Below are positions 18,198 through 56,730 of a stretch of 64,000 nucleotides of DNA, one piece after another (position 1 is the first letter of the stretch; each line of letters begins with the position of its first letter). This DNA comes from a virus, in the IMG/VR virus record IMGVR_UViG_3300022924_000018, positions 12,637 through 76,636 of that record; one strand, written 5' to 3'. The translations under genes were made by a program, and so were the position numbers. The notes under the pieces were generated by a model. It was given only the letters and a program-made list of their open reading frames with translations, ran no database searches and was not told the DNA's origin.

Positions 18198-18490
18198 AAT
18201 CTTATTTGTTTACTCCTCCACTACGCTTTGTTTCTTTACACCATTGGTTATAGAGGGTGTTTAGTTTTTGTTCCATAATGTTTAATTACTTTCCTAAATG
18301 CTTTTCTAATGCGACTATTAACCCAAAAGCAAACTTGTCGTTTTCGTTCCAAAGTTCGCATAATAAATTGTACAAGTCTCTTGCTTCATTATCAGTTGCA
18401 GTTATCAGTCCGTCTGATATAATGCTTAGTATTTCATGTTTCATATTGTTTAAAGGGATTAGAAAGGGTGTTTCATTTATTGTACTGTAC

Positions 18491-19264
18491 TTACTTGCAT
18501 ACTATTGAAATCTTGTTAGGCTTACGTTTACGAACGAGTCCGTCCTTACCCAAGAAGTAGTTTGATGGATAACATAGTCCATAAAAGGCACGAAGATTAA
18601 GTTTGTCCTTAGAAACTATTTCAATGTTCTTCTCTGATTTAATCAATCCAACTGCATTTAACTTCTTTTGTATTTTGTTGCCTGTTGTTATGCTTCTTCT
18701 ATTTACAAGAGTTGCTAATCCTTTATTGCTGATACTATAATAATCTTCGGTTCTTTCGGGTGTTGTGTTTTGCAGATAAGCATTTCTCTTTTGAATTAAT
18801 TTCTTAGCTTCCTTTGGAGAGATAAAATTATCCTCTTGCAGTTTAATGATTTCGGACTTGAGATTGGTTATGTATTGTTGTTGCCTAAAGTTTTTTAATA
18901 ATCGTGTAAATTGAATGTTTAATATTTGTTTGTTCTTGTCATTATTGTATTCTACGGCAATTAGGGGCGACTGTAGTGACTTTCTAAGTTTGGTTGACCC
19001 AACTATGCAAAGATTCCCGTTGTGCATTGTAACGAGTCCTAATTCGGTAAGCTTCTTTATGTGCCTTTGTAGAGTAGAAATTGATAGCCCTGTTTTCTTA
19101 GAAACTTTTCTATATGAGAAGTTGTAGAATTTAGGATTTTTATAAGTCTTTCTTAGGATGATTAGGATTGATAATGAACGTTCCCATTTTTGAGCAATAG
19201 CTTGTTGTATTACCGCTTCGGGTAGCCAAGTGTATTTGTCGTATGTAATGGAAAGTTTGGTCAA
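18491..19264 (-). CDS. Double winged-helix DNA-binding protein, copy 1 (TTG start, 257 aa)
   Basis: FSYRKVSKKTGLSISTLQRHIKKLTELGLV and SNKGLATLVNRRSITTGNKIQKKLNAVGLI; paralog of 25390-26163. Confidence 0.7.
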   Translation of the reverse strand: MTKLSITYDKYTWLPEAVIQQAIAQKWERSLSILIILRKTYKNPKFYNFSYRKVSKKTGLSISTLQRHIKKLTELGLVTMHNGNLCIVGSTKLRKSLQSPLIAVEYNNDKNKQILNIQFTRLLKNFRQQQYITNLKSEIIKLQEDNFISPKEAKKLIQKRNAYLQNTTPERTEDYYSISNKGLATLVNRRSITTGNKIQKKLNAVGLIKSEKNIEIVSKDKLNLRAFYGLCYPSNYFLGKDGLVRKRKPNKISIVCK

Positions 19265-19426
19265 AGCAAAAGGGTTAGTGAAATTTAACTAGTTACCTTG
19301 ATTGACGCTGTGGTAGGGCTTTATCGGTAATCTTTGCTAACTCACTAACCCTTTAGGGTTATATCTTGATGTTCTTTGTATGATTGTCCTGCCTACCACA
19401 GCGGTTTCAACCATGCATCAAAGATA
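19265..19426 (-). ncRNA. Promoter (TATCTTTG, 19419-19426) plus structured 5' leader, copy 1
   Basis: Interleaved inverted repeats 19269-19281/19342-19354 (13 bp) and 19306-19317/19392-19403 (12 bp). Confidence 0.7.
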
Positions 19427-19435
19427 TGAAATATT

Positions 19436-19627
19436 TTAATATTTAGGAACTTCTAAGTAATCAAATAGTTCCTCCCTCAATTCGTCTATTGCGGAGGTCG
19501 TTCCAGAACTTAAACCGTAAGCAGGATGCCCTAAATTCTGTGTCGCTTGTAGTAGCTTTTGTTCTGTTTCCTTTAACACCGTAAGCACCTCTTCTTTTGT
19601 TGCTGTCTCTAGTTTGTCGCTTTTCAT
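19436..19627 (-). CDS. Small protein, paralog of 34645-34842
   Basis: Shared LKETEQKLL.ATQNLGHPAYG.SS and LFDYLE. Confidence 0.7.
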   Translation of the reverse strand: MKSDKLETATKEEVLTVLKETEQKLLQATQNLGHPAYGLSSGTTSAIDELREELFDYLEVPKY

Positions 19628-19665
19628 TTTTGTTGAATTTTATAATTTTCATGTTTTCTTTTAAT

Positions 19666-19697
19666 AAAAGGTGGCGCTTATCCAAGACAACCACCTT
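19666..19697 (-). terminator. Intrinsic terminator
   Basis: aaggtgg/ccacctt stem, U tail on the minus strand. Confidence 0.55.
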
Positions 19698-19754
19698 CCA
19701 AATCTAAATTAACGCATAGCCTATGAAGCTATAATAGGGGCTCTCATCTTCCTA

Positions 19755-19946
19755 TCGTGAATGTGGAGGGACTCAAACCCTCATGGCTACTGTGTTCCTT
19801 CATTACCTTTGCGAACTCTCTAAGAAGCTTTGTTTCGGTACACACTCAATTTCACACACTTTTATGTACTCCATTTAATCGCATGACGGGATAGTGTGAA
19901 ATATAGGCCTTATTGTCTTTACCGTCTCTCTTTCCGGCACACATTC
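19755..19946 (-). ncRNA. tRNA-like RNA with a greatly expanded anticodon region
   Basis: Acceptor GAATGTG/CACATTC, D-arm CCG..CGG, T-arm GAGGG-TTTGAGT-CCCTC, about 135 nt between D- and T-arms. Confidence 0.7.
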
Positions 19947-19950
19947 ATAT

Positions 19951-23575: not shown

Positions 23576-24157
23576 CTATGCAGTTTTGCTAAGTTCTTCC
23601 TCTAATTCTTTCTCTGTTGCTTTAGATACTGACCATTTCTTTCTAACATCAGCAATCTTATACCCTTCTCTCATTGCTTTTACAACATTGGCGAAACTAG
23701 GAGCATCAGATTTATTTAACCAAGGCAAAGCAGGTTTCTCTTCTTTCTTATCTGTGCCACCTGTACTGTTATTACCACTTGCATTGTTACCATCATCATC
23801 TTCATCTATGTTAAGCGATAATACAGCCCCTACAGCGTATCTTCTCTGATAAGTGATACATGAGCCTATTCCTTGAGGATCGTTCTTTGTAGGGTTCATT
23901 TCATACGTATCCATTAAGTATTCACCACTCTCTGCATGAATAAGGATTGTAGTTAAACCATGATTACCTGTAGGATGCTGACTAATGACTAATCCTGCAT
24001 CTAATAAGGGTTGATGTATCTCTGAAAGAATATCTGGTAAGGCAGCGTATTTTGATTTAAAGAAAGGGTTGTTGCTTCCCTTGTTTACCGTTCCTACATT
24101 AGTGTGAAACTTTACCAATGCTAATGCAATGTTTTTTATTGATTCTGATTTTTCCAT
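23576..24157 (-). CDS. erf: ERF-family single-strand annealing protein
   Basis: NPFFKSKYAAL, HAESGEY, PQGIGSCITYQRRYA, DEDDDGN. Confidence 0.9.
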   Translation of the reverse strand: MEKSESIKNIALALVKFHTNVGTVNKGSNNPFFKSKYAALPDILSEIHQPLLDAGLVISQHPTGNHGLTTILIHAESGEYLMDTYEMNPTKNDPQGIGSCITYQRRYAVGAVLSLNIDEDDDGNNASGNNSTGGTDKKEEKPALPWLNKSDAPSFANVVKAMREGYKIADVRKKWSVSKATEKELEEELSKTA

Positions 24158-26163: not shown

Positions 26164-26318
26164 TGATAAAAGGGGTTAAACATTTCACGTTGATACTAAA
26201 CTCTGCCAAGCGCCCTGTATCTTATGATTATGTCAACCCCTTTAAGGATATATTTTGGTAATGTATAATGCTTATGACGTGGGCGCTTGGCGTTGCCTTA
26301 TATCATGCACCAAAGATA
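26164..26318 (-). ncRNA. Promoter (TATCTTTG, 26311-26318) plus structured 5' leader, copy 2
   Basis: Interleaved inverted repeats 26169-26183/26230-26243 and 26205-26215/26281-26291 (11 bp). Confidence 0.7.
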
Positions 26319-26328
26319 TGAATATTTT

Positions 26329-27858: not shown

Positions 27859-28290
27859 TTACAATTCTAAAAATTCCTTAATTGATTGAATAATTTTCTC
27901 TTTGTTCTTAGCGTATAGGTTAAAGTTCCTTTTGCTAGGGTGAATGGTATAAAGCCATTGAGTATTGCATCCCCATGTTTTGTCTTTAGTTGCTATATAA
28001 TCTCTGGCAACATTGCCTAATACCCAAACTTTATTGGCTGATTGCACTTTTATTTCCAGTGTATCATCCCAATGCTTATCCATTTGTTCCTGAGTAGGTT
28101 TTAAATGCCCTCCGTTAGCATCAAATCCTGTGAATGAACCAAACACAGCATCAAAGTCAAAAATGCCTTGTGCAGATTCTTTTGTAATGCCTACTTCTGC
28201 TAGCCATTGATACAGCATTGTGGTATCGTATGGGGTTTCTTGCTTTACAAATGGCAACGCTTGGCCAATTATTAATATTCTATTTTTCAT
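27859..28290 (-). CDS. Uracil-DNA glycosylase superfamily-like protein
   Basis: Motif A-like ILIIGQALP and motif B-like IHPSKRN. Confidence 0.7.
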   Translation of the reverse strand: MKNRILIIGQALPFVKQETPYDTTMLYQWLAEVGITKESAQGIFDFDAVFGSFTGFDANGGHLKPTQEQMDKHWDDTLEIKVQSANKVWVLGNVARDYIATKDKTWGCNTQWLYTIHPSKRNFNLYAKNKEKIIQSIKEFLEL

Positions 28291-28852
28291 GATATCTCCA
28301 TTTACTTCCCAAGCATGTTTTTGAATTATCTTTTAATGCCCTCCAAACTGATTTGGTAGCAGCTTTAGCTTTTATAGCCTCTTTAATTGAAGGCCATGTT
28401 TTAATTATCTGATCTGTTTTTTTGTCTATTTGGTCGACTTTTATACATTTAGGTGCTGTGCCATTAATTTTACCTGCCGTATTGTGAGTTTTTAAAACCT
28501 CTATCATGTGCTTTTGGTTCATCGAGTTATTACACCATTCAAGATTTTCAAGTCTATTATCGTCTTTGATGCCGTTGATATGATTTATCTGGGGATATTT
28601 TGTTGGGTTTGGAATAAAGGCTAACGCAACTAACCTATGAGTTAAAAACATATGTGATTTTAAATCCTTTCGTAAACATATTTTTAAATAACCTTGTACG
28701 TCTTTTTTAGGAGTCATAATTGATGAAGGTATTGAGTAATTACCTCTTTTTTCCGTTACTACAAGCCTATCTAATGACTTTATTCTACCAACATCACTAA
28801 CTTCGTATAGTCCTTCAAAGCCCAATATGGGTTTCCATTCTTCTTCAAACAT
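28280..28852 (-). CDS. NUMOD4-HNH homing endonuclease
   Basis: EEWKPILGFEGLYEVSDVGRIKS; HRLVALAFIPNP; NHINGIKDDNRLENLEW. Confidence 0.92.
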   Translation of the reverse strand: MFEEEWKPILGFEGLYEVSDVGRIKSLDRLVVTEKRGNYSIPSSIMTPKKDVQGYLKICLRKDLKSHMFLTHRLVALAFIPNPTKYPQINHINGIKDDNRLENLEWCNNSMNQKHMIEVLKTHNTAGKINGTAPKCIKVDQIDKKTDQIIKTWPSIKEAIKAKAATKSVWRALKDNSKTCLGSKWRYHEK

Positions 28853-44888: not shown

Positions 44889-45500
44889 TGACAGACTTGG
44901 AATATCACTATTTGCAAATATCAAACATACATGATAAGCATTATAAGAAAAATAGAGAACGGTTACAAAAAATAATGATTGCAAAGGGTGTAACTACTGA
45001 AATGTTAAGTGATTTATTATTATGGGAAAAAGAAAACAAGAGAACAGTTAAATCAAAGAGGCAATTAGATAGATTATTCTTATTAGAAGAGGCGTTGGAT
45101 GTGTTCGATGTTTGTGCTTCAACAGCAGACCAAACAGAGGTATTGTTAAACTTAAAAACTCAAGAAATAGAGAGTTTACTAAAAGCTAATGAAGAATTAA
45201 GGAAAGAACTAGAAACAACAAAACAATTTTATGAAAGCGAAAAGTCTATTTGACAGAAACAAATCCTATAACTATAATTCCTTTGAGGGTAAGAGTGGCA
45301 TTTGGAAACTAATAGGTATAGAAGCAGGTTCTACAATGGAAAACACTTTAGATACTTTTTCAAATGGCAAAGGCGATTACAAAACATTTAAAAGAGAATA
45401 TGTAATTGAACAGGCAGACTTAGGAAACATCAAACCAATAGAATCATCAGAGGTAAAACTTAATACAGAAACAAAGAAAAAACAAGGAAGAGCAATATGA
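44888..45500 (+). other. Two hypothetical ORFs (44888-45253, 45231-45500)
   Basis: Overlapping ORFs after the helicase. Confidence 0.55.
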
Positions 45501-45859
45501 AAATAGACAGGCAATTAGTTTTAAATAAATTTGACGGAAAATGCGCTTACTGCGGTTGTGATTTAGAGAAAGGATGGAACTTAGACCATAAAACTCCTCA
45601 ATGGCATTGTGAGGGTAAAAAACCATTAGCATCAATAGAGCAAGTACATTGTATGGAAAATTATATGCCTTCATGTAGAAGTTGTAATTTATTTAAGTCA
45701 GGTAATAGTATTGAAGGTTTTCGAAAACACATTGAATCACAAATAGAAACATTGAGAAGAGATAGACCTACATTTAGGGTTGCAGAAAGATTTGGACTTA
45801 TCGAATGCAAACCTAAGTCAGTAGAATTTTACTTTGAAATTTATGAAAGAAAACCCTAA
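45497..45859 (+). CDS. HNH endonuclease
   Basis: KFDGKCAYCG...LDH...NYMPSCRSCN. Confidence 0.9.
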   Translation: MKIDRQLVLNKFDGKCAYCGCDLEKGWNLDHKTPQWHCEGKKPLASIEQVHCMENYMPSCRSCNLFKSGNSIEGFRKHIESQIETLRRDRPTFRVAERFGLIECKPKSVEFYFEIYERKP

Positions 45860-54231: not shown

Positions 54232-54249
54232 GTTAAAAAATATTCAAGC

Positions 54250-56730
54250 ATGGCACAAAAATATCTGCAACCTTCGCAATATGTAGGGCAAACTTTTAAA
54301 AATCCATATCCAACAGACAGTTCATTTGATAGCCGATTAAAAAAAGAGAAAGATTATTTCTTAGCTTTTAACAATGCTTTTTTTTGTGACTATGCTAGTA
54401 ATTATTGTTATGTGCCATTTGAGTTTGGCGCTAAGAGAAGTTTTCAGGAACTCCGAGCTTATGCTACAGGTCAACAGTCAGCTAACAAGATTAAAGAAAA
54501 CCTTATTGGTGCTAAGAAGAAAAACAGAGATGGTAAGTTCATCACCAAAATGAATGTTTCGTTCGACACCTACTACAAGCTTCCTCAAATGTTCGATGTA
54601 ATGAGGGAGAAGAATATGAGTCAGGAATACGATATTTCAGTCAGTTGTATTGATGATGATAGTATCGCAGCTAAAGAGGCTGACAAAGCCATGTTGCTTT
54701 ACCTTATTGATGCTAACAACAAAAACTTTATGAAGCAGGTAGGGTTTGTTCCCAACACTCCAATTAACCCCGAAGAAATGGGATTAAGAACTGCTCAAGA
54801 TGTAAAGACCTACTTTGAAATCGGTGGTTATACAATGCACAGAGAAATAGCTTGCCAAGCAGCTTGTCAGAAAAGTAAACTTACCTCCAACTACAAAGTT
54901 ATACAAGACCAAACATTTGATGATTTAATCGTAGCAGGATTATGTGGATGGAAAACCTACATAGAGGCATCAACAAAACTCCCTAAATTTAGAAAAGTAA
55001 ACATCGACAGGGCATTAATACCTTATTCAGAGATGAATGACTTTAGCGACATTACAAGAGCAGGAGAGATAAGGATAATGAGTATAGCGGATATTAGAAA
55101 AGAAAATCCCGACCTTAAAGGCTCTGAATTACTTTACTTAGCTAAATGCTTTGCTTGGATGAACCCACAGTACACGGCAACCATAAACAGCAATTACTAC
55201 AAATACCAATCTCCTTATGATGGCACAAACATTACAAATGCTGATGTTGACCCTGTAAGCAGAGTAAAAATAATGGTATTAGACTCTCAATGGTTAAGTG
55301 TTGATGTAGAAACGAATCTTAAAAACGTTACAGGTAATGGACACAACAGGTTTAAAGAAATACCTTTCGATTATGAAGTAGATAAAAAATCTGCAAAGAG
55401 TGGGGATAAAAAAATACAGAAGAATGTAATCAGGAAATATTATTCAAGTTGGATTATAGGTACTGATATGTTTTTAGATTACGGTGTTTGTAAGGATGTA
55501 GTTTACTACGGTGTAGACGGAAACAAAACGCCAAAATTAGATTTCTTCTTTGCTAAAACGGGTAATGCAAGTTTAGTAGAAAGAGCAGTAGCTATTGTTG
55601 ATGATATTGATATGGCGATTGTTAAACAGAGAAATGCACTTGCAACTATACCTGCTGCTCCGGGTCTTGCTATTCAAAAAGACTTGCTTGAGAATGTATT
55701 TTTAAACGGTATTTTACAACAACCAGACGATATATTACAAGGGTTACAAGAGAGAGGTGTGATGTATTATAATGCCTTAGACGATCATGGAAAACCTTTG
55801 TATATGAGTGGTGGTCAGAAACCAATTGAATACTTAGATGTAACTAAAATAGCAGGCATATTAGCTGTTTACGGTAATCATATCGCAGAGAAAGTAAATG
55901 AACTTCGTGAGGTATTGGGAATGCAGAACGGAGCAGATGCAGGTGGTACAAGCGCTTATCAGGGATTAGGACAAACTAAACTAGCTTTCCAAGCAGCAAA
56001 CGCTTCATTGTACCCTACATTCAATGCCTATAACTATGTATTTAAAGCAGCATTCGAGGACATTATTAAAAAGTGGCAGATCGTAGCAAAGGATGGTGAG
56101 GTAAAAATAAACTATTCATTGTTGGGTAGTAAGAACATGCAGGTATTTAAGCTTGATAAAAACTTCGACAACTACGACTTCAATTTAGAAATAGAAATTG
56201 CACCATCCCAAGAAGAGAAACAAAACTTGCTATCATCAATAGTTCAACAAAAAGCTTTAGGCGATCAAACAGGAGGCGCACAAGGTCTTACAATGAGTGA
56301 ATATCTTTATGTATATCGTAAAGTAATGGCGGGCAATGTTGATGAGGCTATGTATTTAATGGCTCAAATCGAGGCTAAGAAAAAACAAGAACAAGAAGCA
56401 AGTAAGCAAGCGGACATTCAAGCTAATGCACAAGTACAACAACAGTCAGCAGAAACAAAAGGTCAATTAGACCAACAGTTATTAGCAGCTAAAGCGGAAG
56501 CAGATAAACAGCAAGCGTTATTAACAGCATTATTGAAACAGAATGAAATGCTTATTAATCAAATTGTAAGTCCACAAAAACCAGAGGAAATTTCAAAGGA
56601 TGATTTAGCTATCCCCATAGTAGCATTGAATAATGCACAGATAGAGGCTATTGTAGCGCCACAGCCGAGTCAAGAAGAGTTAATGATGCAACAGCAAGCC
56701 CAAGCACAACAAGCGCCTCAAATGGCTTAA
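54250..56730 (+). CDS. Portal protein (crAss-like)
   Basis: ~825 aa; LRAYATGQQ, DLIVAG, VNELREVLG; Q/A-rich coiled C-terminus; synteny TerL-portal-scaffold-MCP. Confidence 0.85.
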   Translation: MAQKYLQPSQYVGQTFKNPYPTDSSFDSRLKKEKDYFLAFNNAFFCDYASNYCYVPFEFGAKRSFQELRAYATGQQSANKIKENLIGAKKKNRDGKFITKMNVSFDTYYKLPQMFDVMREKNMSQEYDISVSCIDDDSIAAKEADKAMLLYLIDANNKNFMKQVGFVPNTPINPEEMGLRTAQDVKTYFEIGGYTMHREIACQAACQKSKLTSNYKVIQDQTFDDLIVAGLCGWKTYIEASTKLPKFRKVNIDRALIPYSEMNDFSDITRAGEIRIMSIADIRKENPDLKGSELLYLAKCFAWMNPQYTATINSNYYKYQSPYDGTNITNADVDPVSRVKIMVLDSQWLSVDVETNLKNVTGNGHNRFKEIPFDYEVDKKSAKSGDKKIQKNVIRKYYSSWIIGTDMFLDYGVCKDVVYYGVDGNKTPKLDFFFAKTGNASLVERAVAIVDDIDMAIVKQRNALATIPAAPGLAIQKDLLENVFLNGILQQPDDILQGLQERGVMYYNALDDHGKPLYMSGGQKPIEYLDVTKIAGILAVYGNHIAEKVNELREVLGMQNGADAGGTSAYQGLGQTKLAFQAANASLYPTFNAYNYVFKAAFEDIIKKWQIVAKDGEVKINYSLLGSKNMQVFKLDKNFDNYDFNLEIEIAPSQEEKQNLLSSIVQQKALGDQTGGAQGLTMSEYLYVYRKVMAGNVDEAMYLMAQIEAKKKQEQEASKQADIQANAQVQQQSAETKGQLDQQLLAAKAEADKQQALLTALLKQNEMLINQIVSPQKPEEISKDDLAIPIVALNNAQIEAIVAPQPSQEELMMQQQAQAQQAPQMA

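Follow-up and report, generated by a model that had tools for sequence, protein, structure and literature searches.

Known systems in which a structured leader RNA governs genes of phages and plasmids differ in how the RNA acts. The c4 RNAs of phages P1 and P7 and the CI RNA of phage P4 are cut out by RNase P and serve as trans-acting immunity factors of temperate or plasmid prophages. Plasmid rep genes are controlled in their own leaders. In pT181, a terminator-like stem-loop located just before the rep start is accompanied by a pre-emptor, and in pSK41, of the RepA_N family, the start region is sequestered (PMC5703833). In the repZ/repA leaders of the IncI-alpha, IncB and IncL/M plasmids, a short loop-to-linear pairing forms a pseudoknot that activates translation; a leader peptide (repY in IncI-alpha and IncB) has to be translated, and an antisense Inc RNA blocks the process (Asano and Mizobuchi 1998, cited in PMC10724649). 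Here, we analyze two cassettes in a 64,000-nucleotide (nt) stretch, hereafter the window, that comprises bases 12637-76636 of the 76,636-bp virus record IMGVR_UViG_3300022924_000018 (phage G000 below); in each cassette, a leader of about 150 nt with two long interleaved helices, B and A, precedes a gene for a protein with two winged helix-turn-helix (wHTH) domains.

Comparison of related sequences gives solid support to the anatomy of this leader as a real, conserved and previously uncatalogued structured RNA of an uncultured group of Bacteroidota phages. As for its function, the reading we prefer, with a probability of roughly one half, is that the leader acts in cis, hiding the translation start and probably also attenuating transcription, as the leaders of plasmid rep genes do.

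By analogy, the logic of the leader appears closest to that of the rep leaders of pT181 and pSK41, although no antisense RNA is in evidence. As in the attenuators of pT181 repC and pIP501 repR, a leader of more than 100 nt precedes a replication-type DNA-binding gene (here, a putative one) and a terminator-like stem-loop lies just before the start, over the ribosome site (here, helix A with its U run). In the plasmids, an upstream pre-emptor pairs with the 5' arm of that stem, and a small rival hairpin might be its counterpart here. In contrast to these plasmids, the locus belongs to a Bacteroidota phage, its protein is neither Rep_trans nor PriCT, and a scan for the consensus -7 box found no antisense promoter; furthermore, the loop of helix A, 32-58 nt long, holds an arm of the crossing helix B, which is missing in pT181. 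The pSK41-type RepA_N plasmids have a rep start sequestered by a leader stem-loop, as the start of the wHTH gene would be here, and a protein to which the N-terminal wHTH domain and the helix that follows it show weak similarity, but in those plasmids sequestration is induced by the antisense RNAI and the origin lies inside rep, whereas neither an antisense promoter nor iterons were found here. The IncI-alpha, IncB and IncL/M leaders resemble ours in that an upstream element pairs over a long range beside the start of an initiator-type gene to give a leader pseudoknot; they differ in that the present leaders have a pair of long helices and lack both a conserved leader peptide and an antisense promoter, and that repression would be expected of them. 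Because the antisense promoter and the conserved leader peptide were not found, the IncI-alpha/IncB parallel drawn in the original prediction, a reading of this DNA made from its letters, holds for the pseudoknot topology beside the start and should be taken as a topological analogy only, not extended to the mechanism.

Crossing helices in two cassettes

The original prediction had placed in cassette 1 a promoter, a leader, a TTG start codon and a gene for a 257-amino-acid (aa) protein with two wHTH domains, and all of these are found where it had put them, the two domains being backed by an AlphaFold model. The interleaved helices fare equally well: a repeat finder returned exactly the proposed arms, with 12 of 12 perfect pairs in B and 13 of 13 in A (19342-19354 with 19269-19281), the latter extending to 14 pairs with one G.U. 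The hairpin proposed to compete for the 5' strand of A is also present. Cassette 2, in turn, repeats the architecture with different stems, B being wholly different and A changed in its outer half, and the promoter 18-mer of cassette 1 recurs there (26304-26321) with a single change (Table 1).

When the best crossing pair of helices was sought without any positional prior and compared with 200 dinucleotide shuffles, the search returned B and A in both cassettes, and none of the 200 shuffles reached the score. A chance origin of the B/A fold in the two cassettes is thus excluded. In cassette 1, 13 nt of the leader (19325-19337) could also pair with part of the gene (19007-19019), but a hand estimate puts this match at chance level for the region, and it was rejected. 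The 323-nt gap just upstream of cassette 1 (19628-19950) holds no minus-strand open reading frame (ORF) of at least 60 aa.

Table 1. Coordinates of the two cassettes in the window and of the loci behind the leaders that lack a wHTH gene
Feature	Position	Strand	Remarks
Cassette 1, -7 box TATCTTTG	19419-19426	minus	Bacteroidota TAnnTTTG type; predicted transcript start 19414
Cassette 1, leader RNA, 150 nt	19265-19414	minus	predicted +1 to base before TTG; covariance model (CM) R1, 159 bits
Cassette 1, helix B, 5' arm	19392-19403	minus	outer extension GGUUGA 19407-19412
Cassette 1, helix B, 3' arm	19306-19317	minus	outer extension UCAAUC 19300-19305
Cassette 1, rival ("pre-emptor"-like) hairpin AACCC-UAAA-GGGUU	19347-19360	minus	3' strand is the beginning of the helix A 5' arm
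Cassette 1, helix A, 5' arm	19341-19354	minus	within the loop closed by B
Cassette 1, helix A, 3' arm	19269-19282	minus	CCCUUU end, then UGCU, then TTG; covers about -5 to -18
wHTH gene 1, 257 aa	18491-19264	minus	TTG start at 19262-19264; two winged-helix domains joined by long helices
Cassette 2, -7 box TATCTTTG	26311-26318	minus	predicted transcript start 26306
Cassette 2, leader RNA, 143 nt	26164-26306	minus	CM R1, 103 bits
Cassette 2, helix B, 11 pairs	26281-26291 with 26205-26215	minus	sequence wholly different from cassette 1 B
Cassette 2, helix A	26233-26243 with 26169-26179	minus	core AAAGGG/CCCUUU kept, outer half changed
wHTH gene 2, 257 aa	25390-26163	minus	TTG start; 36% identical to protein 1
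8-codon ORF and non-coding stretch after leader without wHTH gene, G001	L006:17130-17548		
8-codon ORF and non-coding stretch after leader without wHTH gene, G008	L110:10620-10810		

Promoter and predicted 5' end of the RNA

In Flavobacterium johnsoniae, the G of the TAnnTTTG box sits at -5 (PMC6847099), and this rule was used to place the +1 of each cassette. In the ten leaders checked, helix B together with its outer extension begins 0-6 nt from the +1 so predicted, and in two leaders of the type II defined below, B begins at +1 itself. The promoter rule, which is independent of the fold, agrees with it, and this agreement supports both the promoter call and a structure formed at the RNA level. 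The promoter 19-mer was also found in an IMG/VR search before unrelated, nearly leaderless genes in eight other viral contigs (L010-L017); since these matches precede only unrelated genes with very short leaders, the 19-mer, by its sequence distribution, is a generic strong promoter, separate from the leader element. A Bacteroidota host is indicated by intergenic TAnnTTTG boxes in the window and by language-model look-alikes, which come from Bacteroidota and from viruses of this phylum. The predicted transcripts of cassette 1 (19412-19414), of cassette 2 (26304-26306) and of the two leaders that lack a wHTH gene start exactly with AUG; the ORFs that begin at this AUG (25, 2 and 15 codons) are not conserved, and ribosome binding at the 5' terminus might play a part.

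Leaders in related phages

The wHTH proteins belong to a large, unannotated family: clustered at 50% identity, it has 694 representatives with E<=1e-3, of which 258 have E<=1e-10, and most of the family comes from assemblies of sequencing runs. In IMG/VR, seven related phage contigs carry the wHTH gene, namely, G001-G004, G006 and G007 (70-75 kb) and the 17-kb fragment G005, of which G003, G004, G006 and G007 were found with hand-made degenerate patterns. Within about 3 kb, the wHTH gene is the sole gene common to these contigs, and a gap of 130-165 nt precedes it. Searches elsewhere yielded nothing new: tblastn with three family members against 50,697 deposited phage genomes gave no match, nor did two scans of Genome Taxonomy Database (GTDB) genome contigs; no RNA run was listed among the sequencing runs that contain the sequence; a metagenome scan returned G001 only, which was already known, and a search for the CCC-AAAGGG motif gave 57 loci, none of them related save that in G001. 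Twelve leaders from nine related phage contigs formed the set that was compared. The leader is linked to a family of 694 clusters that marks uncultured phages of 70-77 kb from litter, soil, plant and water samples.

The order B..A..B'..A', built from differing helix sequences, is present in ten of the 12 leaders, from eight phage contigs, and for nine of these ten, none of 200 shuffles gave as good a crossing B/A pair (one of 200 in L086). Three types can be told apart. In type Ia (cassettes 1 and 2, G001, L081 and L087), B is followed by the rival hairpin, the 5' arm of A (AAAGGG...), B', the 3' arm of A (...CCCUUU) and, after 3-7 nt, TTG. In type Ib (L078 and L086), the elements follow each other as in type Ia, A has the opposite polarity (ACCC.../...GGGU), and the U run is strong. 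In type II (L075 and L080), B closes a loop that holds a canonical hairpin with a U5-U8 terminator and a second hairpin. Across the set, leader length is 131-162 nt, and in the ten leaders, the linkers span 33-45 (L1), 5-35 (L2) and 12-26 nt (L3), with L2 narrowing to 5-23 nt in type I, where L1 (33-45 nt) and L3 (12-26 nt) keep the same ranges. As the two helices share no nucleotides and the linkers are long, B and A can form together, as judged from the sequences, giving a pseudoknot.

Helix A emerged independently when RNAalifold was applied to an unguided MAFFT alignment of five leaders, being 94% paired, with compensatory changes in seven of 14 pairs; none of 500 shuffles reached either the paired fraction or the covariation score, and slid controls were 27-61% paired. 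Helix B had to be scored sequence by sequence, its register shifting between leaders and MAFFT splitting its 3' arm; ten distinct B sequences occur across the 12 leaders, each with 8-15 contiguous pairs, and most, when continued past a bulge, reach 15-22 bp. When cassette 1 is compared with its orthologue in G001, to which it is 86% identical, only one of 64 stem columns has changed (U-A to U-G), as against 13 of 102 other columns (p = 0.01). Both helices are therefore kept in the homologous leaders with different sequences, which is what the original prediction implied. The rival hairpin is a more modest element: its CCC..AAA..GGG core, which overlaps the 5' arm of A, is kept in the type Ia leaders, but it amounts to just 3-6 bp, is weaker in G001 and is missing in L078 and L086.

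No catalogued family accounts for these leaders, in agreement with the initial claim that they were undescribed. A search of the whole window against Rfam 15 gave no match at the gathering score; cassette 1 gave none at E up to 10, and cassette 2 only chance small nucleolar RNA (snoRNA) and small RNA (sRNA) rows of 14-17 bits, against gathering scores of 43-72. The gain is a defined leader of about 150 nt with comparative support, outside Rfam 15, in which the parts of the fold would be a 5'-terminal clamp, a start-burying helix and a competing hairpin.

The interleaved order is reminiscent of P1 and P2 in the double pseudoknot of hepatitis delta virus (HDV)-like ribozymes, and a location in the 5' leader would suit a riboswitch; a self-cleaving ribozyme of this kind or a ligand-sensing riboswitch is, nevertheless, extremely improbable. 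In addition to the absence of Rfam matches down to that permissive threshold, the helices, at 9-16 bp, are far longer than those of the ribozyme. In HDV-like ribozymes, P1 has about 7 bp and P3 has 3 bp. Moreover, unpaired positions are not conserved between the leader types, except for CCC..AAAGGG and CCCUUU, so there is no sign of a ligand pocket or an active site.

Exchange of leader and coding sequence

G000 and G001 are distant relatives, with almost no alignable DNA and with typical proteins 25-55% identical. The longest block they share is window 18464-19438, which is 86% identical in DNA; it takes in the whole of wHTH gene 1 and its leader, with some 12 nt beyond the -7 box on one side and 27 nt past the stop codon on the other. 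Other contigs break this unit at the start codon. Two of them, of 73,069 and 7,975 nt, are about 92% identical to the coding sequence over a stretch that begins at 18465 or 18439 and ends at 19258 or 19253, and differ upstream, where they carry another leader type ending in ...GGC-U6-AUG. A third contig shows the reverse, matching the leader alone (19261-19414, 12 differences), whereas the downstream gene and the sequence before +1 both differ. In the runs X2, X3 and X5, with a wHTH gene about 92% identical and the break at 19253-19258, the leader ends in ...AUAGGGC, ...AUACGGC or ...GUACGGC, followed by U6 and AUG, with 30 nt visible in each; such ends look like a terminator-like stem that directly abuts the AUG start.

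Two further leaders are not followed by a wHTH gene at all. The type Ia covariance model detected a second intact leader in G001 (63 bits), which has a new B sequence with 13 perfect pairs, or 14 with one G.U, and a pattern scan followed by the model detected one in G008 (99 bits), with a 15-bp B that is compensatory relative to cassette 1. After both of these leaders, at the usual spacing of 3 nt, there is an 8-codon ORF (MQLNPIPT in G001, MQSTPNTT in G008) and then a non-coding stretch in which the two phages are homologous (about 70% identical) and which contains a small hairpin, CGAG..AGAGU/UUAGU..ACUCU/ACUAA..CUCG, with two compensatory pairs. Going by these sequences, the region behind the two leaders could be another structured RNA or a mini-ORF with a regulatory role. 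The second G001 leader sits at about the position of cassette 2, around which no DNA can be aligned between G000 and G001, and no remnant of a wHTH gene was found after it.

From these breaks at the start codon and from the leaders that lack a wHTH gene, the leader appears to be a portable unit that moves independently of the protein. The suggestion that the module might be mobile is thereby strengthened, as far as the leader is concerned, by the breaks, the leaders without a wHTH gene and the block shared by G000 and G001. The companion proposal, that orthogonal B helices confer specificity between leader and protein, loses its support because leader and coding sequence recombine independently at the start codon; in two phages, there is a leader without a wHTH gene for its B to match. 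A portable module for expression control could become a genetic part for Flavobacteria and Bacteroides.

The leader as a control element

RNA regulation is poorly mapped in Bacteroidota and their phages. Flavobacterium johnsoniae does not use Shine-Dalgarno pairing, and the structure of the start region tunes translation (PMC6847099). In the absence of Shine-Dalgarno pairing in Bacteroidota, control of translation by RNA structure should matter more than elsewhere. In the reading we prefer, each cassette would be a transcription unit read by the host RNA polymerase, and its pseudoknotted leader would restrain the gene behind it. Helix A would block translation initiation because ribosomes that dispense with Shine-Dalgarno pairing need an open start region. 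Together with its U run, helix A might, in addition, form a leader terminator, that is, an attenuator, and in type Ia, the rival hairpin, by taking up the 5' arm of A, would be the "on" state, comparable to the pT181 pre-emptor. As for helix B, it could hold the fold together, protect the 5' end or serve as a site for double-strand processing. Such tight leader control of an early DNA-binding gene would follow a logic known from plasmids.

The placement of helix A is consistent with this scheme: its 3' arm ends 3-19 nt before the start codon (3-7 nt in type Ia), and in L075 it covers the start codon. A U run follows A in both cassettes, G001, L081, L078 and L086, and L075 and L080 have a canonical terminator placed earlier in the leader. 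In nested-only folding, the B state and the A state differ by a few kcal/mol in several leaders.

Several observations weigh against this reading. In most type I leaders, helix A amounts to -14 to -23 kcal/mol, a stability hard to reconcile with any translation of the gene, and the calculated energies do not include the pseudoknot, ViennaRNA folding nested structures only. The set is uneven: L087 has hardly any U run after A, which means that not every leader would attenuate; the start codon of L075 is buried better by a local hairpin than by helix A (nested energies of -52.7 versus -35.0 kcal/mol); and the crossing helix of L080 lacks significance, 13 of 200 shuffles being as good. Nor did a signal that would open the leader emerge. 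No TAnnTTTG box on the opposite strand is common to the ten leaders plus 200 nt of coding sequence, in a scan for the consensus motif only; no leader peptide is conserved, the ORFs, as read by eye, having 25, 22, 2, 43 and 9 codons and different ends, with those of cassette 1 and G001 frameshifted relative to each other; and the leaders compared share no loop sequence suggestive of a ligand pocket. Finally, neither the second G001 leader nor the G008 leader has a wHTH gene behind it, an arrangement that suits an independently functioning RNA no less than a leader dedicated to one gene.

This last observation bears on a different reading, namely, that the leader is released as a stable small RNA, some 150 nt long, either by termination at helix A with its U run or by cleavage at B, and acts in trans through the 5' arm of A, in the manner of P1 c4 and P4 CI, with the variable outer half of helix A setting specificity. 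As in c4 and CI, the antisense element (the 5' arm of A) and its target in the start region of the next gene lie in a single leader transcript, here a predicted one; sequence variants give separate specificities in the phage systems, and here one genome carries two cassettes with differing helix sequences. The structure has a terminator-like end, the ends of the exchanged unit coincide with the predicted +1 and the start codon, and intact leaders with B sequences of their own persist without a wHTH gene in G001 and G008. Other features weigh against trans action: pairing in cis, or within the rival hairpin, leaves the 5' arm of A not obviously free, and the constant spacing of 3-7 nt between A and the start argues for action in cis. 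The hairpin loop of A, at 32-58 nt, is unlike that of efficient intrinsic terminators, and a terminator scan did not call A. Furthermore, a partial search revealed no lysogeny or plasmid-maintenance genes, which would give an immunity system its purpose. We regard trans action as unlikely, albeit worth keeping in mind; if it does occur, enterobacterial phages would no longer be the only ones known to have a c4/CI-like system.

A related proposition, that the leader is a self-contained RNA gene whose released RNA recognizes its cognate start region, as part of an RNA-based, sequence-addressable system in which the variable half of A provides several orthogonal specificities, is doubtful in our estimate. 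If it held, the system could serve dosage counting, incompatibility or superinfection control, and the module could be set before various downstream units, a possibility raised by the leaders that lack a wHTH gene.

It is also conceivable, although improbable, that the pseudoknot activates the gene rather than restraining it, either because long-range pairing presents a weak TTG start, as in the IncI-alpha, IncB and IncL/M plasmids, or because RNase III cuts in B and frees translation, as in the lambda N and T7 early leaders. The long-range pairing does adjoin the start codon, and TTG is the start codon in seven of the nine wHTH genes. Helix B with its extensions makes a near-continuous duplex of 15-22 bp, the sequence of which is free to vary, as expected of a pure double-strand signal. 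Since B always encloses the 5' arm of A but never its 3' arm, a single cut in B would separate the two. Yet, the short loop-to-linear pairing of a few bases, the coupled leader peptide and the antisense RNA of the IncI type are not conserved here, and an A duplex of 13-15 bp would hold after such a cut.

The protein behind the leader

In the AlphaFold model of the cassette 1 protein (pLDDT 82.8), one wHTH domain (residues 11-105) is followed by a long helix of 34 residues (110-143), another helix (150-165) and the second wHTH domain (178-254). Foldseek and VIA searches with this model recovered only generic wHTH matches, with Z <=7.2. The N-terminal domains of RepA_N and of DnaD/DnaB are among the best of them, although they are not clearly separated from the rest (Z 6-7.2); for 4pta (RepA_N), Z is 7.1 over 96 residues, a range common for unrelated wHTH domains. 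In profile comparisons, 4pta was matched with E 0.005 over residues 42-145, and PHROG 428 and 270, annotated as "replication initiation protein", with E of about 1e-6. DnaD_N was detected in three of 53 family members, and otherwise only generic HTH families of Pfam rose above the cut-off. The protein, a predicted DNA-binding early protein conserved across the phage group, thus bears a weak likeness to initiators of the RepA_N and DnaD types; that it is a replication-initiator-like factor or an early regulator is a lead and not a finding.

Initiator genes often carry or adjoin their own origin, as in lambda O, SPP1 G38P and the RepA_N plasmids. With a protein weakly similar to replication initiators, and with origins often lying within or beside initiator genes, the inverted repeats of the leader might be thought to act in DNA, as an origin, a cruciform, a single-strand hairpin or paired operators for the wHTH protein. 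This is, in our view, very improbable. There are no iterons in or near either cassette, that is, no repeated 9-11-mers, clustered direct repeats or clustered near-repeats; the arms lie 32-98 nt apart and cross, unlike operators; and helix B begins at the predicted 5' end of the RNA in all leaders. The G.U pairs point in the same direction, being tolerated in the transcribed sense only: 12 of 194 pairs on the sense strand are G.U and would be A.C mismatches if read on the other strand. In addition, leader and protein have been exchanged independently of each other.

Genomic setting

The window has a G+C content of about 33%, and ARAGORN found no tRNA or tmRNA anywhere in it. Its plus strand encodes a terminase and a DnaB-like helicase, and the minus strand carries a long series of small genes that include YopX, Gp157, an Erf recombinase, UDG and an HNH/NUMOD4 endonuclease; among these, Erf, Gp157, YopX and UDG make up the surroundings of the wHTH genes. 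The endonuclease gene (28280-28852), of the NUMOD4 plus HNH homing-endonuclease type, lies in the early region. The Erf recombinase gene (23576-24157) is a second mosaic block shared with G001, with 84% DNA and 80% protein identity between unalignable neighbours. Lastly, a gene for a 120-aa protein (45497-45859) is 79% identical to a G001 gene located at another place and in the opposite orientation (G001 54245-54625) and, judging from this comparison, looks like a mobile small gene.

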